Shown: piece after piece, positions 4,719 through 59,051 of the stretch
Numbering within the stretch: position 1 is the first letter of the stretch
How the letters are laid out: each line of letters begins with the position of its first letter
NCBI GenBank assembly: GCA_016704325.1
Contig: JADJAG010000005.1
Location: 394,571-458,570, forward strand
Source of the DNA: Chitinophagaceae bacterium
GTDB taxonomy: Bacteria > Bacteroidota > Bacteroidia > Chitinophagales > UBA10324
Direction: 5' to 3'
DNA length: 64,000 nucleotides
The notes under the pieces: model-generated
Databases searched by the model: none
What the model saw: only the letters and a program-made list of their open reading frames with translations
What the model was told of the DNA's origin: nothing
Made by a program: the position numbers and the translations under genes

Positions 4719-4771
4719 CATTTAGCCGTTTAGTCAGTTGACCATTCAGCCATTCAGCCATTCAACCATTT
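4719..4771 (+). repeat. G-poor short tandem repeat of 8-nt period (solo arm) upstream of the MBL hydrolase gene
   Basis: catttagccgtttagtcagttg then accattcag ccattcag ccattcaa ccattt. It ends 38 nt before ATG 4810. Confidence 0.8.
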
Positions 4772-4809
4772 GTATAATCTAACTGCACAACACTTAATTT
4801 CGTACCACA

Positions 4810-21334: not shown

Positions 21335-21377
21335 CAATTAAGCAATTAAACAATTTAGCCATTTAGCCATTCAACCC
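21335..21377 (+). repeat. G-poor short tandem repeat of 8-nt period (right arm of bipartite element)
   Basis: caattaag caattaaa caatttag ccatttag ccattcaa ccc. The G-poor tract continues to the aroE GTG start at 21427. Confidence 0.8.
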
Positions 21378-21426
21378 AATCGCATAATCCCTACCCTCCA
21401 TACCTCACAAACATTCCCCCATCTAA

Positions 21427-24159: not shown

Positions 24160-24220
24160 GCTTTTTTTTGATGAAAGTAGCAAAACTTCTGAAAATGAAA
24201 AGAAACTAATTGGAAGCAAA

Positions 24221-24349
24221 TAGTCGGAAGTAATTAGTCGGAAGTCGGAGTAGTTAGTCGGAAGTCGGAAGTAGTTAGTCGGAAGTAAGTTTTAAGTTGT
24301 GAGTAGTGAGAAGAGAGTAGTGAGAAGAGAGTAGTGAGTAGTGAGTAAC
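24221..24349 (+). repeat. C-poor short tandem repeats of 7-nt period (left arm)
   Basis: (agtcgga agtcgga gtagtt) repeated, then gagtagt gagaaga gagtagt gagaaga gagtagt gagtagt. No C at all in 24289-24348. Confidence 0.85.
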
Positions 24350-24510
24350 GGGTGACATGGGTCAGTTAGGGGGCAGGTAAGAATTTGCTTAATATTAGTT
24401 GACACTAGTACAACAACCGATCCGCTGTGTTAAGCAAAATCAATTGGACCAATCGGTCAATCGACTAATTAGCATATTAATATTATTAAAGATCACCAAA
24501 TCCATCCTTT

Positions 24511-24614
24511 ATACATCGGCACATTAATCCAACAACCCAACAACCCATCAACCCATCGGCACATCAGCACATCACCCCATCGGCACATCAACTCATCAAC
24601 CAATCGGCACATCT
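24511..24614 (+). repeat. G-poor short tandem repeat of 8-nt period (right arm)
   Basis: ATC recurs exactly every 8 nt nine times from 24547 to 24613: catcaacc catcggca catcagca catcaccc catcggca catcaact catcaacc aatcggca catc. Confidence 0.85.
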
Positions 24615-24662: not shown

Positions 24663-25844
24663 ATGCCACAAACAACTACTCCTGTCTCTTTCGAGAATAC
24701 GGAAATAGCTTTTTCCTACAAAAGCAATGGGGAGCTGAAGAAATCAGTCCTGATGTTTTCGTTGATGAATCAAAACTGGTTGGTTAAGATCGGATCGCGG
24801 CTGACGCCGGTTGCCTTTCAATGGAGACTTCCGATTCATGGATTGGTAAAGGCCACCATCTATGAACAGTTTTGTGGTGGGGAGACTTTGGCAGAATGCG
24901 AGCCGGTAACACAAAAGCTTGCCAAGTATAATGTGTCCACCATACTCGATTATGGCGTGGAAGCCAAAGAAACCAATGAAGAGTTTGACAAAGGCATCAG
25001 TGAATTCTTAAGAGCGATTGCATTTTCAAAAGAGAATCATCACATACCATTTATCAGTATTAAAGTAACGGGCATAGCCGCCTTTGCTTTATTGGAAAAA
25101 CTGCATGCAAAGCAAGCGCTTACAGATGCGGAAATCCTGGATTGGAATCTCGTGAAAGGTCGACTGCATAAAGTATGTAAGGCTGCGCATGATGCCGGCA
25201 CAGGCGTGATGCTTGACGCAGAAGAAACATGGATTCAGGATCCGGTGGATGAACTGGCCATGGAAATGATGAAGCATTACAATAAGGAAAAAGCAGTAGT
25301 GTATAATACCCTGCAGATGTACCGCACCGACCGGTTAGACTTTCTGAAAAAATCACTTGAACAAGCTAAGAGTGGAGGATTTGTATTGGCGCTGAAGCTG
25401 GTTCGTGGCGCTTATATGGAAAGGGAACGACGAAGGGCAGTGGAGTTGAAATATAAGTCACCCATTCAACCAGATAAAGCCGCATCTGACCGCGATTTCG
25501 ATGCTGCCGTCATGTACTGTATAGAAAATATCGATCGTATCAGTTGTTGTGTCGCTTCTCATAACGAGAAGAGTTCGTTGCTTGCAGCTGAGCAGGCTGC
25601 AAAAAAGGGCATTCCTGCTTCTAATCCGCACCTGCATTTCTCACAGCTCTATGGGATGAGCGACAATATCACCTTTAACCTGGCCAATGCCGGCTATAAT
25701 GTAACCAAATATGTACCTTATGGACCGGTGAAGGATGTGGTACCCTATCTCATGCGAAGGGCAAAGGAAAATACCTCGGTAAAAGGCCAAAGCAGCAGAG
25801 AATTGTTGCTTTTGAAGAAGGAAATCAACAGACGAAAGATTTGA
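24663..25844 (+). CDS. Proline dehydrogenase (monofunctional PutA-like)
   Basis: 393 aa. Blocks LDYGVE, DAEETWIQD, LVRGAYMERER, VASHNE, QLYGMSD, YVPYGPVKDVVPYLMRRAKEN. Confidence 0.85.
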   Translation: MPQTTTPVSFENTEIAFSYKSNGELKKSVLMFSLMNQNWLVKIGSRLTPVAFQWRLPIHGLVKATIYEQFCGGETLAECEPVTQKLAKYNVSTILDYGVEAKETNEEFDKGISEFLRAIAFSKENHHIPFISIKVTGIAAFALLEKLHAKQALTDAEILDWNLVKGRLHKVCKAAHDAGTGVMLDAEETWIQDPVDELAMEMMKHYNKEKAVVYNTLQMYRTDRLDFLKKSLEQAKSGGFVLALKLVRGAYMERERRRAVELKYKSPIQPDKAASDRDFDAAVMYCIENIDRISCCVASHNEKSSLLAAEQAAKKGIPASNPHLHFSQLYGMSDNITFNLANAGYNVTKYVPYGPVKDVVPYLMRRAKENTSVKGQSSRELLLLKKEINRRKI

Positions 25845-25865: not shown

Positions 25866-26395
<530 letters not shown>

Positions 26396-28939: not shown

Positions 28940-29160
28940 AGCCATTGTCTTTCAGTAGGGTGTATGACAAATTGCATTTCTCAGCGATAAAATAATACAA
29001 GCGCGAAGACGCCCCAAAAACGTAGCATATTGATCCTTTGTGATTTTCTTCGCGACTTGGCGTCTTGGCGTTAAAAAAGCAAGGCGCTAAGGCAAACGCT
29101 ACAGCATTAAGTGCAATTTGTCATAAACCCTTTCAGTAAGCAAACTGCAGGACAATGGCT
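28940..29160. repeat. MITE-like nested palindrome
   Basis: Outer arms agccattgtc (28940-28949) and gacaatggct (29151-29160). Inner arms tatgacaaattgca (28963-28976) and tgcaatttgtcata (29112-29125). Internal module gcgcgaagacgcc ... cttcgcgacttggcgtcttggcg. No ORF. Confidence 0.7.
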
Positions 29161-32280: not shown

Positions 32281-32324
32281 AAGGCATTTAAGAACAGTTG
32301 ACGTCTCGATCAGATCCTGATTAA

Positions 32325-32394
32325 CAATTCAATCATTCACTCCATCGGCACATCAGCACATCAATTCATCAGCACATCAACCCATCTCACCCCC
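32325..32394 (+). repeat. G-poor short tandem repeat of 8-nt period abutting a start codon
   Basis: caattcaa tcattcac tccatcgg cacatcag cacatcaa ttcatcag cacatcaa cccatctc accccc, then ATG at 32395. It shares the word catcggcacatcagcacatca with 24556-24580. Confidence 0.85.
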
Positions 32395-33390: not shown

Positions 33391-33495
33391 GTTGAAAATG
33401 TAAACAGTCGAATGCAATTGCCGTGAAGCGTAAAAAATGATCTTACTCATTCTCGTTTACAGTTCCGATGGCAATAGCTATGGTAGTCAAATTCT

Positions 33496-33572
33496 CCGGC
33501 TTCGCCGCAACCATTCAACCATTCAACCATTCAACCATTCAACCATTCAACCATTCAACCATTCAACCATTC
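33496..33572 (+). repeat. GC hinge word plus (CCATTCAA) x7 perfect tandem repeat
   Basis: ccggcttcgccgca (33496-33509), then seven perfect ccattcaa units (33511-33566) and a degenerate ccatc. Between convergent genes. Confidence 0.9.
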
Positions 33573-33593
33573 AACCATCTAGCAATTTTTCAT

Positions 33594-34754
33594 TTATAAT
33601 CCGGCAAACGCCCCCTCAATATCCCCCACCAAATAATCAACCCCCTCCAACCCAATATAAAACCTCACCATCCTGTGAGCAGCAATTTCCTGGTTAAAAT
33701 CTTCCGGTTTAATTACTGCGCATGATGGAAAGATCAGCGACTCATGTCCGCCCCAGGAAACCGCCATCAGAAAATGTTTCAATGAGTTGCAGAATTTTTC
33801 AACTGCCTGAATAGAATTTACTTTTAGAACCACGGTAAATAATCCCGGCGATTGCTTCATTTGTTTTTTCGCCAGTTCGTATTGCGGGAAGGAAGGTGAG
33901 AAGGGATAGTATATCTTTTCAACCATGGGATGATTTTCCATGAATTGCGCAATGTGTTGTGTGCTTTGCGCAATTCGTTCAAGCCGGATTTCCAGTGTTC
34001 GGAGACTTCTAATAAGCAGCCATGCATTGAATGGTGAAATGATGGAACCCACTGTAAGCAAATCAGACTTAAATATTTTTTCAATCATTTCTTTCTTGCC
34101 GGCAATCACGCCTGCAATCACATCACTGTGTCCGCCTAAATATTTAGTCGCTGTTTGTACAGAAATATCAATTCCGAAATCAAGTGGCCGCTGATACAAT
34201 GGAGAACAATAACTATTGTCAATAATGGTGAGTAACCGTTTCGATTTTGCAAGCCGTGCCACTGCTTCAAGGTCCTGCAATTCGAATGTGAATGAATTGG
34301 GCGATTCGAGGAAAATGATTTTGGTATTTGGTTGAATGGCACGCTCAAAATTTTCGATGTTTGTTCCGTCAATCATGGTTGCCGTGACACCAAATCGTGG
34401 CAATAAAACATTGAACAACTTATCCGTCCATGAGTAAGGTTTTGCTACGGAGACAATATGATCACCTTGCTTCACATTGGCAAATACAGCCAGAAAAACA
34501 GCTGCCACACCACTGGAAAGCACAAGTGCATCTTCAGCATTATCCAATGCTGCAATTTTTTTACGAAGAATCGTAACCGTTGGATTATTGCCACGTGAAT
34601 ACAGATCCACTGCAAATTCATCCTGCATCGCTTCACGCAATTGTGCTACATTCTTAAATGCAAAATTGCTTGTTTGAATAATGGGAGGTGCTACAGCGCC
34701 AAAGTAAGACTCGCGATCTTCTCCTAACTCATTGATGATTTGTGAGAGGTCCAT
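33594..34754 (-). CDS. Cys/Met-metabolism PLP-dependent enzyme (cystathionine gamma-synthase/lyase family)
   Basis: The track start at 34769 is TTG; ATG 34754 gives MDLSQIINEL. PLP-lysine block SVQTATKYLGGHSDVIAGV, YSRGNNPT, and GGHESL near the C-terminus. Confidence 0.8.
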   Translation of the reverse strand: MDLSQIINELGEDRESYFGAVAPPIIQTSNFAFKNVAQLREAMQDEFAVDLYSRGNNPTVTILRKKIAALDNAEDALVLSSGVAAVFLAVFANVKQGDHIVSVAKPYSWTDKLFNVLLPRFGVTATMIDGTNIENFERAIQPNTKIIFLESPNSFTFELQDLEAVARLAKSKRLLTIIDNSYCSPLYQRPLDFGIDISVQTATKYLGGHSDVIAGVIAGKKEMIEKIFKSDLLTVGSIISPFNAWLLIRSLRTLEIRLERIAQSTQHIAQFMENHPMVEKIYYPFSPSFPQYELAKKQMKQSPGLFTVVLKVNSIQAVEKFCNSLKHFLMAVSWGGHESLIFPSCAVIKPEDFNQEIAAHRMVRFYIGLEGVDYLVGDIEGAFAGL

Positions 34755-36234: not shown

Positions 36235-38136
36235 ATGTTTAAGGACGAGAATAAAATTGCTTACCTCTTGTTGTCGGTGTATTATGTTGCCATGCTTGCA
36301 ATGGCTTTTCTTGCCGGTGGAACGGGTGATGACGGCGATAGCATAGCCCATTACCTCTTTTCAAGGTATGCCTTTGTACATCCTGAAAACTTTATTGAAC
36401 ATTGGGCCAAACCGGTTTTTGTACTCCTTTCCGCACCTTTTGCGCAGTTCGGTTTTATTGGCATAAAAATTTTCAACGTCACGGTTACCACCCTGGCTAT
36501 ATTATTCACCTACCGGATTGCGCGACAGCTAAAAATCAGGAACAGTTGGTTTGTGATTGTAGCACTTTGTTTTGCACCCATGTATTTGCGGCTCACGCTT
36601 TCGGGTCTTACAGAACCATTATTCGCGCTGGCAATCACCGTAGCAATTTTTTTGGCACTTCGAAAGCATTTCCTCGCTTCGGTTTTAATTGTTTCCTTTC
36701 TTCCCTTTATTCGTTCTGAAGGTTTAATAATTATTGGTGTATTTGCTTTCTACTTAATAATCACCCGCCGGTATAAACTGATGCCCATACTTGCATCCGG
36801 TCACATAGTGTATAGTATACTCGGTTGGTTTTATTACACTGATTTTCTCTGGGTTTTCAATAGGATGACGTATGCCGTGTGGAACAGTTCTTACGGACAA
36901 GGTTCGCCGCTTACTTTTTTATGGGGCATGTTTGATTTTATCGGGTTGCCGCTTACATTTTTATTTATTGCCGGCACGATATCCTTAATCAGTAATGAAA
37001 GGGCTGTCTTTAGAATTAGGAGGCTAAAAGTATTTTCTACGGAAGAAGTATTGCTTGTATATGCAAGTTTCTTTGCTATTTGGTTGAGTCATACGATATT
37101 TTGGACATTCGGTTTGTTTAACTCGCTTGGATTGGTGAGGGTATTGATAGCAGTTGCACCTTGTGCGGCAATTATTTGCCTGCGTGGTTTTAATTTGATA
37201 TTAAATGTGAATTTTATTGCTTCAACACCAACTATGCGCATTTTGGCCGGTTTGTTTTTGTCATTAGCCGTTATTATAACTCCATTTATTCAATTGGATT
37301 ATAAGTGTTCATTTAAGTTGAATGGAAATCAACAAAGCCTTCAGGATGCCGGAAAAAAATACGGTAAACAACTGGAAGAACATACCATCTTTGCTTCATC
37401 GCCCTATTCATTAATCCCATTTAACTGCGATCCTTTTGATACCACACGAAGCAAGCGGCTTAGGGAAATCCATTCGGAGAAGCAATTTCCAGAGAAGAGC
37501 GCAATCGTATGGGACGGCTTTTATGCACCGAATGAAGACAAGGTCGCATTGGCTAACTTAATGGAGGATGAGCGTTTTGAACTGCTGGATATTTTTGAGG
37601 CGCAAGATTGCAAGAGCAATACAAGCAAATCAGCCGTGTTTCTGATTAAGACTGGTGCAGAAACAAAATGGATGGTAAAGGATACCATTTATAGTATTGA
37701 TTTTGAATCAGAACCGGTCAACGAAAAAATCACGACACCTGCTTTCTCCGGTAAATATTCCTGCAGGATCGATCAAGACTATCCGTTTAGTCCAGGACTG
37801 CAAACAAAAGTTATCGATCTCGGTATTGAGTTGCCTGCAACCTTACGGGTTAATGCTATGATTTATGCTGAGAGCATCCCTTTTTTTCATGACAAGCATG
37901 CGTTATTGGTAGTCTCCTTGGAACACAATGGCAGCGTTTATTTCTGGAAGGGACTGGATATTCACAATGAATTAAGTGCTGTTAAATCGTGGGAAGAGGT
38001 TGTGTTTCAGATCGGCCTGCCTGCCGCAACTGATGTTAATGATGTGCTGAAGATATATGCCTGGAATCCCCATGAAGGCGCAGTGAACCTGGATGAGTTT
38101 ATGATCAGTCATGTGGTGAATGATATAGTTAAATAA
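36235..38136 (+). CDS. GT-C-like polytopic membrane protein (ArnT/PMT-like glycosyltransferase fold) with soluble C-terminal domain
   Basis: 633 aa. About 11 helices in the first ~350 aa, an acidic first loop GGTGDDGDSIAHY, and a C-terminal ~270 aa non-membrane domain. Family assignment is tentative. Confidence 0.5.
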   Translation: MFKDENKIAYLLLSVYYVAMLAMAFLAGGTGDDGDSIAHYLFSRYAFVHPENFIEHWAKPVFVLLSAPFAQFGFIGIKIFNVTVTTLAILFTYRIARQLKIRNSWFVIVALCFAPMYLRLTLSGLTEPLFALAITVAIFLALRKHFLASVLIVSFLPFIRSEGLIIIGVFAFYLIITRRYKLMPILASGHIVYSILGWFYYTDFLWVFNRMTYAVWNSSYGQGSPLTFLWGMFDFIGLPLTFLFIAGTISLISNERAVFRIRRLKVFSTEEVLLVYASFFAIWLSHTIFWTFGLFNSLGLVRVLIAVAPCAAIICLRGFNLILNVNFIASTPTMRILAGLFLSLAVIITPFIQLDYKCSFKLNGNQQSLQDAGKKYGKQLEEHTIFASSPYSLIPFNCDPFDTTRSKRLREIHSEKQFPEKSAIVWDGFYAPNEDKVALANLMEDERFELLDIFEAQDCKSNTSKSAVFLIKTGAETKWMVKDTIYSIDFESEPVNEKITTPAFSGKYSCRIDQDYPFSPGLQTKVIDLGIELPATLRVNAMIYAESIPFFHDKHALLVVSLEHNGSVYFWKGLDIHNELSAVKSWEEVVFQIGLPAATDVNDVLKIYAWNPHEGAVNLDEFMISHVVNDIVK

Positions 38137-38239
38137 GTGTAAAAAAGTGAATTTCATTAACTAATAGGGCAGCTTGAAAATTTGGATTTATTTCATTTCC
38201 GCATATCTTGATATATGTGATTTTAGAGAAAAAGGAAAT

Positions 38240-38448
38240 GGGTGTACGGCAAATTGGAAATAGATTATTGGGTGTTGAAATTGAGTATTGAGTATTAAGT
38301 ATTGAGTATTGAGTATTGAGTAAGTTGAGTAAGTGAGTAGAGTAGGGATTGCAGAATAGCAAGTGATCGGCTTCGCCGCAGCAATTTAACCATTTAGCAA
38401 TTTAACCACTCAACCATTCACCCCCCCCAACCATTGCTTGATAAGATG
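38240..38448 (+). repeat. Bipartite 7-nt/8-nt periodic intergenic element, copy X
   Basis: Terminus gggtgtacggc, then the 30-bp core caaattggaaatagattattgggtgttgaa (38250-38279). (ttgagta) x6 with no C in 38251-38351, then hinge gatcggcttcgccgcag. Then gcaattta accattta gcaattta accactca accattca (1 G in 38382-38436). Ends attgcttgataagatg. Confidence 0.9.
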
Positions 38449-38461
38449 ATCCTCACACAAA

Positions 38462-39622
38462 TCAAATTTCAAGCTCGGCTATTTCCCGCCAATTTGTAAT
38501 CAACGTACCATCACTTCGCTGTTGTTGTTGCTCACCGCCATAAAGCAGAAAGGATGATTTTACATGACTTAATTTTTTCCAGTAATTGATGTTTTTCAGG
38601 AAATCAGGCTGGAATGTTTTACCTGATTTTATTTCAATAGGCATTAACTTTCCTGCGTTATCAGTAATTATATCTATTTCATGACCGGTTTTATCTCTCC
38701 AGTAAAACAGGTTAACCGGCATTCCGCTATTGGTTCTTTTTTTTAATAGTTCAGCTACCACCATTGTTTCGAACAAAGCTCCTTTCAGCGGATAGTTTTG
38801 AATCTGCTCCCAATGGTTGATTCCTAACAATGAACAAACTAAGCCAGTGTCATAGAAATATAGTTTGGGGCGCTTAACAATCGTTTTATTGAAATTTTTG
38901 TGATGAGGTTTCAAAAGAAAAATAATAAAACTGCTTTCCAGGATTCCAATCCACGACTGAACTGTTTTACCATCGGCACCCGCCTCATTCGCAAGCGCAC
39001 TCAGGTTTAATTCCTGACCAGTTCGACCTGCAAGCAGCCGGATAAATCTTTCAAAAATAATCAGATCACTCACATTTTTTATTTGACGCACATCCCTTTC
39101 AATGTATGTTCTGATGTAATCAGGCAGCCAAGCCGTTGGTGCTATTTCTTGATCATAAATAGGAGGGTAAAAACCTTTGAATAGTAGCTCCTCATCGGTT
39201 GACGGAACAAGTTTTGCTTTTTTGAGCTCATTTATTGAAAAAGGTAATAGTTGAATGTATCCAATCCTGCCGGCCAGTGTTTGGGAAATGGTTTGCTGAA
39301 GTAAGAAATTGTTGGAACCGGTGAGCACAAAAAGACCTTTTTCTTTACTTCCATCTAAAATTTCCTGCAGGTAAGAGAAGAGTTCAGGTGTTCGCTGCAC
39401 TTCATCCAAGATTGCTCCATAAGGCATACTTTTTAAAAATCCCCGTGGATCCTCTATTGCAAAGTTCCTGGTATCCGGATTCTCTAATGAGTAATAGCTT
39501 TTATCGGGAAAAGTCTTTTTTACAAGCGTCGTTTTGCCCGATTGCCTCGGCCCGATAATCGCAATTGCTTTAAAAGTCTTCGCAAGATGTTCCAGCCTTT
39601 TTTGTGCATCTCTTTTAAGCAT
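38462..39622 (-). CDS. AAA-type ATPase with DUF4143-like C-terminal domain
   Basis: 386 aa. Walker A GPRQSGKTT and Walker B-like LDEVQ. The architecture matches the AAA_14 + DUF4143 family common in Bacteroidota and archaea. Confidence 0.75.
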   Translation of the reverse strand: MLKRDAQKRLEHLAKTFKAIAIIGPRQSGKTTLVKKTFPDKSYYSLENPDTRNFAIEDPRGFLKSMPYGAILDEVQRTPELFSYLQEILDGSKEKGLFVLTGSNNFLLQQTISQTLAGRIGYIQLLPFSINELKKAKLVPSTDEELLFKGFYPPIYDQEIAPTAWLPDYIRTYIERDVRQIKNVSDLIIFERFIRLLAGRTGQELNLSALANEAGADGKTVQSWIGILESSFIIFLLKPHHKNFNKTIVKRPKLYFYDTGLVCSLLGINHWEQIQNYPLKGALFETMVVAELLKKRTNSGMPVNLFYWRDKTGHEIDIITDNAGKLMPIEIKSGKTFQPDFLKNINYWKKLSHVKSSFLLYGGEQQQQRSDGTLITNWREIAELEI

Positions 39623-40020: not shown

Positions 40021-43000
40021 ATGCCTTTCAAGAAAGACCTCAAGATTAAGCCCAACTTTACCAGAATCACCCTCTCGCTGGCATCTCCGGATTCCATCCT
40101 GGAGCGGTCATACGGTGAGGTGCTGAAACCGGAAACAATCAACTACAGGACCTACAAGCCTGAGCGTGATGGATTGTTTTGCGAGCGTATTTTTGGCCCG
40201 GTTAAAGATTATGAATGTTATTGCGGAAAATACAAACGTATTCGATACAAAGGTATCGTCTGCGACCGTTGTGGTGTGGAAGTTACCGAGAAGAAAGTAC
40301 GCCGCGAACGCATGGGCCACATCAAACTGGTGGTGCCTGTGGTGCATATCTGGTATTTTAAATCGCTTCCGAATAAGATCGGCTACCTGCTCGGTTTGTC
40401 TTCCAAAAAGCTGGAGACCATCGTCTATTACGAACGTTATGTAGTCATTCAACCCGGTATCCGTGAGGATAAACAATATCTTGATCTGCTTACTGAAGAA
40501 GAATACCTGGAAATACTGGAGCAGCTTCCGAAAGACAATCAGCATTTGGATGACATGGATCCTAAAAAATTCGTGGCCAAAATGGGTGCTGAAGCTTGTC
40601 GTGATTTACTTGCACGCATTAACCTCAACGACCTTTCTTATCAATTACGCCATCAGGCTGCCAACGAAACATCGCAACAACGCAAAGCTGAAGCTTTGAA
40701 AAGGTTGAGTGTGGTGGAAGCCTTCCGTGAAGCAAATGAAAGAACTACGAATCGTCCGGAATGGATGATCGTACAATACCTTCCTGTGGTACCTCCTGAA
40801 TTGCGCCCCTTGGTGCCTTTAGATGGTGGCCGTTTTGCCTCTTCAGACTTGAATGATCTATATCGTCGCGTTATTATCCGCAACAACCGTTTAAAACGCC
40901 TTATTGAGATTAAAGCGCCCGACGTAATCCTCAGAAATGAGAAACGTATGTTGCAGGAAGCAGTTGACTCGCTCTTCGATAACTCCCGTAAATCAAATGC
41001 GGTAAAAGCGGAAGGCGGACGTGCTTTGAAATCTCTCAGCGATGTGTTGAAAGGTAAGCAAGGCCGTTTCCGTCAGAACCTGCTCGGTAAAAGGGTTGAT
41101 TATTCAGGCCGTTCTGTAATTGTGGTTGGACCAGATCTGAAATTGCATGAATGCGGTATTCCAAAAGATATGGCTGCTGAGTTGTTCAAGCCATTCATCA
41201 TCCGCAAACTCATTGAAAGAGGAATTGTTAAAACGGTAAAATCTGCCAAGAAACTGGTGGACCGCAAAGAACCCGTTATCTGGGATATCCTCGAAAACAT
41301 TCTCAAAGGCCATCCTGTAATGCTAAACCGTGCTCCTACACTACACCGTTTGTCCATTCAGGCTTTCCAGCCTAAACTGATTGAAGGCAAGGCCATTCAC
41401 CTGCATCCTTTGGTGTGCGGCGCTTTCAACGCTGACTTTGACGGTGACCAGATGGCAGTGCATGTACCATTAAGCAATGCAGCCATCCTGGAAGCACAGT
41501 TGCTGATGCTTTCTTCCCACAATATCCTGAACCCGCAAAATGGTTCTCCGATCACCCTTCCTTCACAGGACATGGTATTGGGTCTTTACTATACTACCAA
41601 AGGAAGGAAAAGTGATAGTGTGCTGAAGATGAAAGGAGAAGGAAAAGCTTTTTATTCTGCAGAAGAAGTAATTATAGCTTATAATGAAGGTAAGGTGGAT
41701 TTGCATTCATGGATCCGTGTAAAGGCACATGTGAGAGAGAACGAGGCCCTCGTAGAAAAGCTGATTGAAACAACAGTTGGCCGTGTGCTCTTTAACCAAT
41801 TGGTTCCTGAAGAAGCCGGTTATATCAACATGCTGTTAACAAAAAAGGCTTTGCGTGATATCATCGGAGATATCATTAAAGCAACAGACATTCCAACTAC
41901 TGCCAGGTTCCTGGATGAAATCAAAAACCTTGGTTTCAACATGGCATTTAAGGGTGGTCTTTCCTTTAACTTATCAGATCTTCTGATTCCTGATAATAAA
42001 CAGGAAATGTTGAAAGGCGCACAAGATGAAGTAGATGAAATCACGAATAACTACAACATGGGTTTCATCACCAACAACGAGCGTTACAACCAGGTAATTG
42101 ATATCTGGACCCGTGTAAACAACAGAATTTCCGAAACGCTCAACAAAGCGCTTGAGCTCGACCGCCAGGGATTCAACAGTGTATATATGATGTTGCACTC
42201 CGGCGCCCGTGGTTCTAAAGAACAGGTACGTCAGTTAGGCGGTATCCGCGGATTGATGCAGAAGCCACGTAAATCAGGCAGTTCGGGCGGAGAGTTGATC
42301 GAGAATCCGATTCTAGCCAACCTGAAAGAAGGACTGAGTGTATTGGAATACTTTATTTCTACACACGGTGCCAGGAAAGGTTTGGCCGATACAGCCTTAA
42401 AAACTGCAGATGCCGGTTACCTCACCCGTCGTTTGGTAGACGTAGCGCAGGATGTGGTGATTATGGAAGAAGATTGTGGAACGCTACGTGGTATCCCAAT
42501 ATCAGCGTTGAAGGATAATGATGAAGTGGTAGAACCATTATACGACCGCATAGTCGGCCGTGTTAGTCTTTATGATATCATCGATCCTTTGACGGATGAA
42601 TTGATTGTAAATGCCGGAGATGAAATTGATGAAGACATTGCTTCCAAGATAGAGAATACGGCAATTGAAACGGTGGAAATACGTTCGGTGCTTACCTGTG
42701 AATCACGCAAGGGCGTTTGTGTAAAATGTTATGGACGCAATCTTACTACAGGCCGCCGCACAGAGATGGGTGATTCAGTAGGTATCATTGCTGCACAATC
42801 TATCGGTGAACCCGGAACACAGTTAACACTGCGTACCTTCCACACAGGCGGTGCTGCATCAGGTATGGCTACAGAATCTGAATTGAAAGCCAAATTTGAT
42901 GGCGTAGTAAAATTTGAAGATGTAAGAACTGCAACCTTTACCAATGGCGCCGGAGATAAAGTAGTGGTAGCAATTGGGCGTGCAGGGGAAGTTCGTATTG

Positions 43001-44322
43001 AAGATCCCAAATCTGATCGGGTACTGATTTCCAATCACGTTCCTTACGGTGCATTTATTGTGGTGAAGGAAGGCGATAAGGTAACAAAAGGAAAAACGAT
43101 TTGTACCTGGGATCCTTATAATGCTGTAATTCTTTCAGAAATGAAAGGACAGATTGAATTCGAAAATATCATCGAAGGCATCACTTTCCGCGAAGAAATG
43201 GATGAACAGACCGGCCATAAAGAAAAGGTAATCATTGAAACACGTGATAAGACCAAGATTCCTACCATTAAAGTCATCGGTAAGGGTAAAGAACATAAAG
43301 CATACAATATCCCGGTAGGATCGCATATTAATGTAGAGGAAGGAGAAGATGTGGATGCCGGTATGATCCTGGTGAAGATTCCAAGAACATTGGCCAAACT
43401 TCGCGGTGATATCACCGGTGGTCTTCCGCGCGTAACTGAATTGTTTGAGGCGCGCAATCCATCCAATCCTGCTGTAGTAAGTGAGATTGATGGGGTAGTA
43501 TCCTTTGGCGCAGTGAAGCGTGGTAACCGCGAAATAATTATTGAATCAAGAGACAGCGATCAGCGTAAATACCTCGTACCACTTTCTAAACTGTTCCTTG
43601 TTGCGGAAGGTGATTATGTAAAAGCCGGTCAGCCGCTTTCAGAAGGAGCCATTACGCCTAATGACATTCTTGCTATTAAAGGTCCGAATGCAGTGCAGGA
43701 GTATATGGTAAATGAAATTCAGGAAGTTTATCGTTTGCAAGGTGTGAAGATCAACGACAAGCACATTGAAACGATCGTTCGCCAGATGATGCGCAAGGTT
43801 CATATCGAGGATCCGGGAGATACCCGCTTCCTGGAAGGAGAAGGTGCTGATAAGTTTGAGTTCCTCATTGAGAATGAAGAGATCTTTGACAAGAAGGTGG
43901 TGACAGAAGCAGGTGATTCACAAACACTGAAAGTTGGACAGATAGTTACCCTTCGCCAGATTCGTGAAGAGAACTCAATGTTGAAACGACAGGATAAGGC
44001 AGTGGTTCAATTCAGAACAGCCATGCCGGCAACATCAAGTCCGCTGTTAATGGGTATAACCAGGGCCTCTTTGGGAACTAAGAGCTGGATATCTGCTGCA
44101 TCCTTCCAGGAGACAACCAAGGTACTGAGTTCTGCATCCATCAATGCGAAAGTGGATGAGTTGAACGGTCTGAAAGAAAATGTAATCATTGGGCACCTGA
44201 TTCCTGCCGGAACGGGTATGCGCGAATATGAAAACATCGTGGTTGGTTCACAGGAAGAATATGATAAACTGGTTGCTTCGAAACGTGAGTTGATGGGCAA
44301 CCTCCCAAGCCTGGATGAGTGA
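40021..44322 (+). CDS. rpoC: DNA-directed RNA polymerase subunit beta-prime
   Basis: 1433 aa. Zinc finger [23 protein letters not shown], catalytic [14 protein letters not shown], and full-length N- and C-termini. Confidence 0.98.
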
Positions 44323-44734: not shown

Positions 44735-44840
44735 TTAGTATTTTACCTAATCAGTTTGAGGTACATGTGTTGATGAAAGCCTGTAGAGTACGACAAACCT
44801 TTTTGCTTGCATGGCATTGGTTGGCTTTACGCAAGCCATC

Positions 44841-44929
44841 GGGTGTAAATTGAATATTGAATATTGAGTGTTGAGTATTCAATATTGAAAAATCTAATAT
44901 TCAACACCCAATAATCAATATCCAATTTG
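44841..44929. repeat. 7-nt periodic array plus inverted copy of the 30-bp core (copy Z)
   Basis: gggtgtaa attgaat attgaat attgagt gttgagt attcaat attgaaa, then ttcaacacccaataatcaatatccaatttg (44900-44929). The latter is the reverse complement of the core at 38250-38279 with 2 mismatches. It forms a 12-bp stem: gtgttgagtatt / aatattcaacac. Confidence 0.8.
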
Positions 44930-44986
44930 TTGTACAACCAAAGTCATTGTTACCTTCCTGTTTTCCAAAACGGATTCATTTAGCCT

Positions 44987-56025: not shown

Positions 56026-58299
56026 ATGAGAAAGATCAAATTCAAAACTGAATATGTGCCGCTGAGCGACGAAGTCATCAACAGCCATAAAAATTTCGAT
56101 CAGTTGTTGTCTGCCTATGTTGCTGCGCCTAAACCCAATTGGTTTAAACAATTCATACAAAAAAAGTGGACTATGTTTGGAGGAGGATTAATGACCGGTG
56201 CAATTATTACTTCATTATTGTGGTATAACCAGGAAACGCTGTTTGAAAATGATACGCTGGTACAGGAATCGCAGCCGGCTGCAGAACAACAGTTAATAAA
56301 GGAGCAACAGCCGAAAGCCATTATTGATTCTTTGCAATTTGCTATTGCAGATGAAATCGAACAGGAACATCCTGCAAACATTGATGCTGCCGAAGAAAAA
56401 AATACAGCTTCAACAGCATCTTTGACACCTGATACTAAAGGGAAGGATGTTTTAGCAAATGGTAATGCAGTCGGTTTACAAAATGGCACCGTAAAAGGTT
56501 CAACCGAAAAAGTTCAGCAGCATATTATTGATGAGCCCCTTACTCCGGTAGTCACAAGAGCGCAACAACCAATAGAGTCTGCTGAAAGTACAATGACAGA
56601 TGTTATTCCTGCAGGTACATCCATACCGCTAAATGATCAATCGGCAATAGTCGCTGATAATCTCGTGCAAACTGATACCACTACAGTGGAATTGGAAAAG
56701 CAGGTTGCTGTTGAGCACAATGCGCTTTCTTCCGGTAATATTGACACCGGTAGGGTATTGGAACCAGTAGTAGCAGCTGTTGTACCGGAAGCAAAGACTG
56801 AATTATCCGCCACTGATTCTGCAATAATTGTTAGTGAATCAAAAGATAAGGATGGCAACCTCTTGCCAGGTGTTGTAGCCGGCGCAGCGATTATTGCAGC
56901 ACCTTCTTTAGGTGATAAATCAAATGCAGATAAGAATACTAAATCCAATAATAGCGACAAACAAAAGTCAAAGGGAAAAGAGAAGCAGGAATCCAATGCT
57001 CCAGAAGACATCACGGCTTTCAATGCAGACAGTACAGTCAATGATGCCTCAGTGGAAAAGAAGAAAGGATGGTTTGTTTTTGGAACAGATTCTTCAAAAG
57101 TTGATAAAACAGCCGGTGGAAGTAAAATGGATTCCATGCGGGCAGCCGGCAAAACGCCGGAGCAACTAAGCCAGGATTCACTTTATACACCACGCTACGC
57201 GCAGGTTTCTTTCATAACTCCTTTGAGTAGTAATGGAATAGATGGCTATAAGTATATGCATTATTTCTCACTCAATATTTTACAGGGTTATAATGGCGCA
57301 TTGGAAGGAGCAGAATTTGGTGGATTGTTGAATGGGGTTAAAGGCTATGTAACGGGAGCACAATTTGGCGGACTTGCGAATTTTGCGGGGGGCAATCTTA
57401 AGGGAGCACAATTCGGAGGATTAGCAAATTTCACCGGCGGATATGTTAAAGGTGCACAGTTTGGCGGATTGGCTAATGTAGGCGAATCAGTAGATGGGGC
57501 TCAGTTTGCAGGTATCGCAAATGTAAGCGGCAGTTATGTTACCGGGTTTCAGGCAGCGGGCATAACCAATATTTCTGCCGACAGCCTGAATGGAGCACAA
57601 GTGGCCGGCATTGTCAATATAGTAAGTAGTGAAAAGCAATCAACCGGATGGCAGGTTGCCGGAGTCGGCAATGTTTCCCTCGCAGAAGCAAAAGGCGGGC
57701 AAATCGGCGGTGTGTTTAATGTGGCCAACAGGTTAGTAGGAGCACAAATCAGCTTAATCAATTTCGGACAAAATGTAGACGGTGTACAGATTGGTTTAAT
57801 TAATATTTCCGATACAATAAAGGGTGCAGCCATCGGATTAGTGAGTGTAAGTTCTGATGGAGTATTTGATGTAGCCCTTTGGACCAGCGACTTTCTGATG
57901 TTTAATGGCGGTATTCGCGTGGGTACGAAATCCGTTTATAATATTTATGCTTATGGTGTGTCGCCTTTCCAAACTGAACTTCCTTTTGGTTTTGGTATTG
58001 GTATTGGTGGACATATTCCTGTTAAGAAGAAAGCATTTATTGAGATTGATGGTATGGCATGGTCAATGCATCGCAGCTATGTGAGTTTCGATGAGATCAA
58101 CATGATTAACCAGTTGCGTGTAATGGGTGGATACCGCTTCAATAAATATTTCAGTGTTTTTGCAGGTCCAACATTAAACGTCAGTGTACAGAGTAACCGT
58201 TACGAACCGTTTCTCGACAATTACTTTTATGAGAGTGTAAGTGAAAACAACACCGTTCGCCTGGCACCTGGATTTGTAGCGGGAGTGCGTTTATTCTGA
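56026..58299 (+). CDS. Single-pass membrane protein: short cytoplasmic N-terminus, disordered linker, ~16-aa G-x-Q-x-G-G-x-x-N repeats, OMP-like beta-barrel C-terminus
   Basis: 757 aa, 9 nt after the sigma gene. One helix WTMFGGGLMTGAIITSLLWY, then ~300 aa of Q/E/A/T/K-rich sequence. About 11 repeats (GAQFGGLANFAGGNLK, GAQFGGLANFTGGYVK, ...GVQIGLINISDTIK). The last ~150 aa have alternating-hydrophobic strands ending GVRLF. Confidence 0.6.
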   Translation: MRKIKFKTEYVPLSDEVINSHKNFDQLLSAYVAAPKPNWFKQFIQKKWTMFGGGLMTGAIITSLLWYNQETLFENDTLVQESQPAAEQQLIKEQQPKAIIDSLQFAIADEIEQEHPANIDAAEEKNTASTASLTPDTKGKDVLANGNAVGLQNGTVKGSTEKVQQHIIDEPLTPVVTRAQQPIESAESTMTDVIPAGTSIPLNDQSAIVADNLVQTDTTTVELEKQVAVEHNALSSGNIDTGRVLEPVVAAVVPEAKTELSATDSAIIVSESKDKDGNLLPGVVAGAAIIAAPSLGDKSNADKNTKSNNSDKQKSKGKEKQESNAPEDITAFNADSTVNDASVEKKKGWFVFGTDSSKVDKTAGGSKMDSMRAAGKTPEQLSQDSLYTPRYAQVSFITPLSSNGIDGYKYMHYFSLNILQGYNGALEGAEFGGLLNGVKGYVTGAQFGGLANFAGGNLKGAQFGGLANFTGGYVKGAQFGGLANVGESVDGAQFAGIANVSGSYVTGFQAAGITNISADSLNGAQVAGIVNIVSSEKQSTGWQVAGVGNVSLAEAKGGQIGGVFNVANRLVGAQISLINFGQNVDGVQIGLINISDTIKGAAIGLVSVSSDGVFDVALWTSDFLMFNGGIRVGTKSVYNIYAYGVSPFQTELPFGFGIGIGGHIPVKKKAFIEIDGMAWSMHRSYVSFDEINMINQLRVMGGYRFNKYFSVFAGPTLNVSVQSNRYEPFLDNYFYESVSENNTVRLAPGFVAGVRLF

Positions 58300-58563: not shown

Positions 58564-58705
58564 GGGTGTACGACAAATCTATATTGGTATTAATGATAAC
58601 ATTCTCGAAGAATTTTATTTAGCGCGAAGACGCCAAGTCGCTAAGAAGAGGCGGAGGATCATCAGTGATTTTGTTTTTTGTCGACTTGGCATCTTTGTGG
58701 TGGGA
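58564..58705. repeat. Second copy of the MITE-like module seen at 28940-29160
   Basis: gggtgtacgacaaatct (compare gggtgtatgacaaattgca at 28957). gcgcgaagacgccaagtcgctaag ... gatcatcagtgatttt ... tcgacttggcatctttgtg (compare 29001-29073). Confidence 0.65.
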
Positions 58706-58800
58706 TTGCTTCTTTGTTTCACCATGCAACGCCGCTTTAATTAACCGTCATTGCGAGTACGTACCATTGTACTGCTGGAAAAAAATCAATATTGAACACA

Positions 58801-58966
58801 CAATTTGGATATAGATTATTGGGTGTTGAAATTGAGTATTAAGTATTTGAGTAACTGAGTAAAGCAAAGTAGTGATTACAGGATAGCAAGTGATCGGCTT
58901 CGTCACAGCAAATTAGCCATTTAGCCATTTAACCATTTAGCCCACCAACCATTGCTTGACAAGATG
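58801..58966 (+). repeat. Bipartite 7-nt/8-nt periodic intergenic element, copy Y
   Basis: Core caatttggatatagattattgggtgttgaa, then ttgagta ttaagta tttgagt aactgag. Hinge gatcggcttcgtcacag, then gcaaatta gccattta gccattta accattta gcccacca. Ends attgcttgacaagatg. Collinear with copy X. Confidence 0.9.
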
Positions 58967-59051
58967 AACGAATTGTCGTAAACTCCAAAAAAAATGATAC
59001 CCCAATACTGCAACCGAAACGTTTATATTTGCGCCTCAAAAAAAGCAGATC

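Follow-up and report, generated by a model that had tools for sequence, protein, structure and literature searches.

The window, i.e., the complete 64-kb stretch of DNA analysed here, carries a conspicuous non-coding element at 38240-38449 (Table 1). Family homology ends at 38449, which lies 13 nt from the stop codon of the convergent gene, and the sole open reading frame across the element is a low-complexity frame through the repeat. Two 386-aa minus-strand genes of the neighbourhood (33594-34754 and 38462-39622) were considered as paralogous transposases and rejected as such, as one encodes a Cys/Met PLP enzyme and the other an AAA_14/DUF4143 ATPase. It is this opposite-strand ATPase gene, and not rpoB, that precedes rpoC (40021-44322) within the segment 38462-44322, and the gene order suggests a rearrangement or insertion upstream of rpoC. 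No record was returned by exact-protein look-ups for 36235-38136 and for 24663-25844.

Table 1 Parts of the focal element and further family members in the 64-kb window.
Feature	Coordinates	Strand	Basis or remark
Left terminal inverted repeat GGGTGTACGGCAAATTGG	38240-38257	+	18-mer also bounds MITE copies and a 1.3-kb IS
Subterminal core AAATAGATTATTGGGTGTTGAA	38258-38279	+	Conserved in long- and short-type copies (alignments)
Heptamer array, TTGAGTA x6 followed by degenerate units	38280-38345	+	Tandem Repeats Finder, alignment
Non-repetitive spacer and hinge GGATTGCAGAATAGCAAGTGATCGGCTTCGCCGCAG	38346-38381	+	Conserved in all long-type copies
Octamer array CAATTTAA CCATTTAG CAATTTAA CCACTCAA CCATTCAC	38382-38421	+	Tandem Repeats Finder, period 8
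Right subterminal segment CCCCCCCAACCATTGCTTGATAAGATGA	38422-38449	+	Alignment to full copies
Second long-type copy	58793-58985	+	nhmmer E = 1e-61, model positions 4-194
Partial second-subfamily element abutting the 58793 copy	58564-58792	+	Starts with GGGTGTACGACAAAT; interior common with 28958-29130
Short-type copy, heptamer hairpin interior	44783-44939	-	nhmmer with short-type profile, E = 7e-38; inverted pairs
Complete second-subfamily MITE, 173 nt	28958-29130		19-nt inverted repeats (GGGTGTATGACAAATTGCA)
Long-type fragment: hinge CCGGCTTCGCCGCAA, then (CAACCATT) x8.9	33488-33587	+	Local alignment z = 21; nhmmer E = 1e-7
Long-type right-arm fragment (octamers)	21341-21378	+	Local alignment z = 14; nhmmer E = 6e-4
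Long-type right-arm fragment (octamers)	4720-4762	+	Local alignment z = 5.7; nhmmer E = 6e-4
Left-arm-like array	24287-24347		Local alignment, nhmmer

The element is a real, non-random feature that an earlier note on this DNA had described correctly at the level of its sequence. Its parts follow one another in the order given there, i.e., the terminus GGGTGTACGGC, the core, six TTGAGTA heptamers (one of which reads TTAAGTA), degenerate units, the hinge GATCGGCTTCGCCGCAG and five octamers. As had been claimed, 101 nt (38251-38351; A34 G31 T36) are devoid of C, which is the longest such run in the window (second-longest run, 69 nt). We likewise confirmed a right arm with a single G, which spans 54 nt (38382-38435), has its G at 38397 and contains a longest G-free run of 38 nt (38398-38435). 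Tandem Repeats Finder detected 6.1 units of period 7 at 38280-38322 (unit ATTGAGT, 94% matches) and 3.1 units of period 8 at 38380-38404, in agreement with the proposed spacing of 7 nt on the left and 8 nt on the right. The 17-mer of the core occurs again as an exact match at 44900-44916 on the minus and at 58814-58830 on the plus strand, giving three occurrences in the window against 0.38 expected.

Comparison with related copies shows in which respects the focal copy departs from its family. Its heptamer array is longer than the family consensus by ~4 units, seen as a 29-nt insertion relative to five other copies, and it carries one extra octamer with a C8 run. At position 10 of the left inverted repeat, the family consensus and the related strain L160 have an A; the 18-mer used as search pattern for the ends permitted A or G at this position. 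The nhmmer match of the focal copy stops at model position 186 of 195, and the right inverted repeat of ~18 nt is missing. With one inverted repeat and no recognisable duplication, the focal copy is one-ended and presumably immobile.

Altogether, the window holds two long-type copies, one short-type copy, two second-subfamily elements, of which one is partial, as well as three to four fragments, i.e., about nine copies or fragments in 64 kb or roughly one per 7 kb. The collinear homologue that the earlier note placed at 58801-58966 is real and matches the focal copy at 94% over 47 nt in the core, at 84% over 80 nt in the hinge and at 93% over 27 nt in the right end, but its true span is wider (58793-58985), with a degenerate left end and the right inverted repeat AATTGTCGTAAACTC at 58971-58985. 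The abutting partial element at 58564-58792 is absent from the corresponding locus in L100-L102. A terminus reading GGGTGTACGRCAAAT recurs as inverted pairs at 58564(+)/58971-58985(-) and 28958(+)/29116-29130(-), and a degenerate pair is found at ~44783(+)/44925-44939(-). The second-subfamily MITE at 28958-29130 is flanked by a perfect 8-bp duplication, TTTCAGTA (28950-28957 and 29131-29138), and has its interior in common with 58579-58800. Within the fragment at 33488-33587, the octamers occupy 33508-33578 (8.9 units, 100% matches in Tandem Repeats Finder) and the hinge fragment 33488-33509. The view that the element is modular and repeated, and that its terminus, core, hinge and terminal motif are defined, was thus borne out.

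Several other repeats of the window deserve mention in their own right. The divergent intergenic region 24212-24613 has a MITE-like layout of period 7 followed by period 8 with other unit sequences and no recognisable inverted repeats: periods of 7, 14 and 21 (AGTCGGA, GAGTAGTGAGAAGA) occupy its left side, periods of 8 and 24 (CCATCAAC, CAACACATCAACCCATCGGCACAT) its right side. A second, unrelated family of REP-like repeats occupies 25867-26327. It comprises 86-nt tandem units (2.2 copies at 26138-26325) that hold the palindrome CGACTCCGCTCAGCG ... GGCCGCTGAGCGAAGCCGAAGCGCCGGATC, with more copies at 25867 and 25939. Among these units lies an extreme homopolymer region (25976-26125) of G-rich tracts, including ~69 nt with 85% G (26045-26113), which give way to C13. 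This may be a true tract prone to form G-quadruplexes or else an artefact of the assembly or of two-colour sequencing. Finally, a 48-nt in-frame tandem repeat (2.6 copies, 57355-57477) resides within a 757-aa ORF without a Pfam match.

Copies beyond the window, which the earlier note had anticipated, were found in metagenomes. Scanning with the 18-nt end yielded nine family members, seven of them complete. All seven complete copies possess inverted ends of ~13-18 nt with at most three mismatches in the right end. Five are flanked by perfect duplications (GTTGCAAC, TCTGTTGG, AAGAGCTT, TTTTAGATG and CTTTTAGTC) and one more by an imperfect one; these target-site duplications measure 8 bp, or apparently 9 bp in two cases. 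The flanks of the metagenome copies match neither the window nor one another, and as these copies are alike in the element alone, they represent independent insertions. Full copies span 140-260 nt and lack coding capacity, as expected for the size of a MITE. The family is therefore a known kind of element and not a new class: the statement that no described class has such an architecture does not hold, given the inverted repeats, the 8-bp duplications and a matching insertion sequence (see below), and MITEs with tandem repeats have been published (PMC4596501).

Searches of other collections contributed little. In the full-text literature, the end and array sequences gave unrelated primer matches only. 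A scan of the genome collection with the 17-mer of the core returned nearly exclusively chance matches in coding sequence (peptide DYWVL), and among the matches listed the only real copy was L022 (CAZGBP010000059.1). This contig is binned as 'uncultured Bifidobacteriaceae', although the MITE otherwise occurs in a Bacteroidota-like setting, and mis-binning is likely. In viral contigs the hinge pattern had no match and the end pattern had eight; two of these, on the contigs of L135 and L139, were rejected as ordinary non-element sequence. The flank of L141 resembles a Chitinophagaceae bin at 75% identity.

The family comes in a long type of 187-194 nt and a short type of 140-157 nt, both non-coding and intergenic, and intact members are bounded by the inverted repeats GGGTGTACGACAAATTGG ... 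AATTGTCGTACACCC. According to the alignment-derived consensus, the long type begins with the left inverted repeat and the core ...GATTATTGGGTGTTGAA, continues with three to four TTGAGTA-like heptamers, a unique spacer ...GATTACAGAATAGCAAGTGATCGGCTTCGCCGCAG and three to four octamers (CAATTTAA / CCATTTAG), and closes with CCCACCAACCATTGCTTGAYAAGATGAACG and the right inverted repeat. The octamers number 3 to 5 among the aligned long-type copies, and the metagenome copy L126 has at least 8 heptamer units; replication slippage probably changed the number of units between copies. The strand-asymmetric arms are internal microsatellite-like arrays, with TTGAGTA-type heptamers on the left and CCATTTAG-type octamers on the right. 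Stretches of 66 nt without C and of 29 nt without G are already present in the long-type consensus. Thus, the strand asymmetry is inherited and not specific to the focal locus.

The short type, exemplified by L111, L128, L100-L102 and the window copy at 44783-44939, has the ends and the core of the long type and an interior in which TTGAATA/TTGAGTG heptamers and their complements form a near-perfect hairpin. The octamers of the long type (CCACTCAA, CCATTCAA) correspond to the complement of the hexamer within the heptamer plus one extra base. To this extent the '+1 register' between the arms, as proposed earlier, is present. The shift from 7 to 8 nt sets the arms out of phase and abolishes pairing between them. 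These relationships suggest that the long type is a de-registered derivative of a foldback ancestor, a transition that may have been favoured by the instability of long perfect palindromes. The family would thus provide a compact case of a foldback MITE whose palindrome is lost when the repeat period changes by one base.

An identical 18-nt end (18/18 nt) also bounds an IS of 1315 bp in L110, which runs from GGGTGTACGACAAATTGGG to CAATTTGTCGTACACCC and has full-length homologues in L149 and L155 (73% identity). MITE and IS have only ~18 nt at each end in common. Two ORFs of the L110 IS overlap at an A9 run, the second being in the -1 frame, and the fused product matches the NCBIfam model ISKra4 (NF033572) best by far (E = 9e-57), with a score of 193 bits that falls just short of the curated cut-off of 205. 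In the ISMich2 group, the transposase is encoded by two ORFs and restored by a -1 frameshift, and the Mutator-like superfamily is characterised by inverted repeats of 18-39 bp and duplications of 8 or 9 bp (Guerillot et al. 2014, PMC3942029). The L110 IS shows the -1 frameshift and an 18-nt inverted repeat, and the duplications are seen on the MITE copies. Judging from its sequence, the putative transposase of the L110 IS is thus closest to the ISKra4 family and shows the gene arrangement of the ISMich2 group. A transposase gene with the ends of the MITE family was found neither in the window nor in the related-strain loci. A further multi-copy element of the metagenomes, in which the GGGTGTACGACAAATTGG end is followed by ACATATATTTATTTTTCCCAC..., was observed in L113, L117, L120, L121, L131, L136, L138, L144 and L146; it presumably represents a further IS or MITE that relies on this family of transposases.

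We also compared the loci of related strains. The focal copy is found with the same sequence in three assemblies of close relatives (L160-L162). Upstream of ychF, the window, L105 and L107 carry a long-type copy, and a short-type copy sits at the same junction in L100-L103, which encode an identical YchF protein and, in the case of L100-L102, also have near-identical flanking DNA. Both alleles at this site carry the unusual right-end variant GTCGTAAAC, as opposed to GTCGTACAC in the family consensus. The most parsimonious account is one insertion event, after which recombination with a different copy exchanged the interior. In the strains compared, the ychF site was never empty but always held a long- or a short-type copy, and no presence/absence polymorphism (i.e., an empty site) was seen among related strains at the focal and the ychF sites. 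Four independent short-read contigs (L161, L162, L126 and L022) end inside the heptamer or octamer arrays, showing that the family fragments short-read metagenome assemblies.

Taken together, our data indicate that the focal bipartite element is very probably a decayed copy of a MITE family with ISKra4-type IS ends and expanded 7- and 8-base repeats. An ISKra4-type transposase acting in trans would recognise the ends of the MITE, move it and create the 8-bp duplication, and the focal copy itself is most likely an immobile fossil between two convergent genes. For annotation, this means that a conspicuous sequence without an Rfam or Pfam match becomes a MITE family tied to the little-studied ISKra4/ISMich2 transposases.

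Some properties of the arrays go beyond this picture. The long-type copies and fragments of the window all have the + orientation, and in ~10 of 12 copies from the window and the metagenomes the gene that lies upstream of the left end is co-directional (two-sided p ~0.04, with crude ORF calls). Furthermore, arrays of period 7 in the window are without exception poor in C on the + strand and those of period 8 poor in G, also when their units are unrelated (AGTCGGA, AGTAGTG and TAAGACT for period 7; CCATCAAC, CATCAGCA and CAATTAAG for period 8). Tandem Repeats Finder also detected higher-order array periods of 14, 21, 16 and 24. The relation between period and composition could stem from a common family origin and concerted evolution of the arrays. 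It is not accounted for by simple selfish spread, and neither are the uniform orientation and the co-directional upstream gene. Should the orientation bias extend to the whole genome, it would suggest that the orientation of insertion is selected or targeted.

A role for the host would be one way to account for these properties. In this scenario, which is compatible with an origin as a MITE, the weakly structured, G-poor and C-rich arm on each strand would be a Rho-loading (rut-like) site, and the element would terminate both convergent genes or, where it lies just upstream of a start codon, provide an unstructured leader. The right arm has 38% C and 4% G on the + strand and the left arm 31% C and no G on the - strand, and the element folds no better, or worse, than shuffled sequences; both strands are thus C-rich, G-poor and unstructured like a rut site, which is expected to span 60-80 nt or more downstream of a gene, and this likeness is one of composition. 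A scan of 38000-38600 found no intrinsic terminator-like site between the convergent genes and no sigma-70 promoter, whereby the promoter model does not cover promoters of Bacteroidota. Besides the co-directional upstream genes, the distance from the end of a G-poor octamer array to a + strand start codon is 0-70 nt in several cases (array end/start codon at 4770/4810, 32386/32395, 24613/24663 and 58985/59052). We also observed that the G-poor octamer arrays at 32322-32394 and 4720-4806 reach predicted + strand start codons (32395 and 4810), so that transcription of the arrays as leaders would follow if these start codons are right. On the other hand, the orientation bias comes from 12 copies, each transcript across the focal copy must pass the G-rich arm first, and the composition is inherited from the family consensus, so that no selection is needed. 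We therefore consider it unlikely that the host has recruited the MITE family as a portable bidirectional Rho-loading terminator or as a leader for Shine-Dalgarno-less Bacteroidota genes. If true, every copy would offer a G-free, C-containing stretch of RNA whichever way it is read, and such recruitment would account for the orientation bias and explain why the ancestral hairpin was lost when the register shifted from 7 to 8.

Still less probable is that the convergent arrays of one hexamer serve as protein-binding sites on duplex DNA, candidates being subterminal sites for the transposase or sites for a nucleoid or regulatory protein. The TTGA(G/A)T hexamer is indeed repeated directly on the left, its complement is repeated on the right in the short type, and the arrays adjoin the inverted repeats. 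However, the autonomous IS with the same ends lacks such heptamers, which are thus not required for transposition, and both the sequence and the number of units vary freely among copies. Other arrays in the window keep the period and not the sequence (e.g. AGTCGGA, AGTAGTG, TAAGACT, CCATCAAC and CATCAGCA), and a period of 7 or 8 does not keep phase with the DNA helix.

The least credible reading is a long imperfect RNA hairpin or DNA cruciform formed by pairing of the arms, as the earlier note had envisaged. The claim that the arms are reverse complements was not confirmed, as one octamer only (CCACTCAA) exactly complements the TTGAGT hexamer, and folds of the window copies were no more stable than dinucleotide shuffles, which argues against the long bulged hairpin (RNA of 38240-38448 on both strands, RNA of 58790-58970 and one DNA fold; z = +0.43, -0.24, +2.03 and +1.43). 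As shuffling of the whole sequence mixes the G-rich and C-rich arms, the arms were also shuffled separately; array-array and arm-arm duplexes then gave z-scores from -0.94 to +1.66, with one cofold value of -2.09 that includes structure inside the left arm. RNAalifold on five complete copies found a compensatory change in 1 of 56 pairs and an unfavourable covariation term of +2.88. Of the two tests named beforehand, arm pairing did not exceed shuffles, and compensatory change in the five-copy alignment was confined to this one pair. Rfam likewise gave nothing credible, either at gathering thresholds across the whole window or in an E-value search of 38100-38500. Structure does exist elsewhere in the family: intact long-type copies fold better than shuffles (z = -3.95), their core GGGTGTTGAA being able to pair with TTCAACCCACC near the right end, and the short type forms a 32-bp heptamer hairpin (z = -10.96). 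The stability of the intact copies, however, derives mainly from pairing of the transposon ends.

The MITE reading places the family next to several known systems. Small modular intergenic repeats that are abundant in the genome include the Correia elements of Neisseria, which influence transcription and RNA processing, and the BOX elements of Streptococcus pneumoniae, which vary in the number of internal modules. Both differ from the present family: Correia elements have a TA duplication, BOX elements are not known to have clear inverted repeats, and neither is known to carry 7- or 8-nt microsatellite arrays. Cyanobacterial STRR heptamer repeats, reportedly described by Mazel and coworkers in 1990, form tandem intergenic heptanucleotide arrays that are likewise dispersed in the genome without a known function; they are not known to be bounded by transposon ends or duplications, and their unit sequences and host phylum are unrelated. 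Heptamer repeats of bacteria are also discussed in PMC4692102.

Closer likenesses are found among transposable elements. With the ISMich2 group of p-MULT 4 Mutator-like transposases (PMC3942029), the family shares the 8-9-bp duplication and an inverted repeat that starts with G and ends with C, and the L110 IS, whose 18-nt end is identical to that of the MITE, has two ORFs with a -1 frameshift. The window element differs in that it lacks a transposase; it is a non-autonomous derivative or mimic and not an IS. The Bacteroidota already include MITEs with internal tandem repeats, namely BrickBuilt, MITEPgRS and MITE464 of Porphyromonas gingivalis (Klein et al. 2015, PMC4596501). Like our family, these are non-coding and intergenic, have short inverted repeats that match insertion sequences (resident ISs in their case) and an interior of tandem direct repeats whose number varies between copies, and many copies lack one end. 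BrickBuilt and MITEPgRS, however, have IS5-type ends (GAGACC...), units of 23 or 41 nt and irregular duplications (PMC4596501), whereas the present family combines ISKra4-type ends (GGGTGTACGAC...) with regular 8-bp duplications and paired 7- and 8-nt arrays of opposite strand composition.
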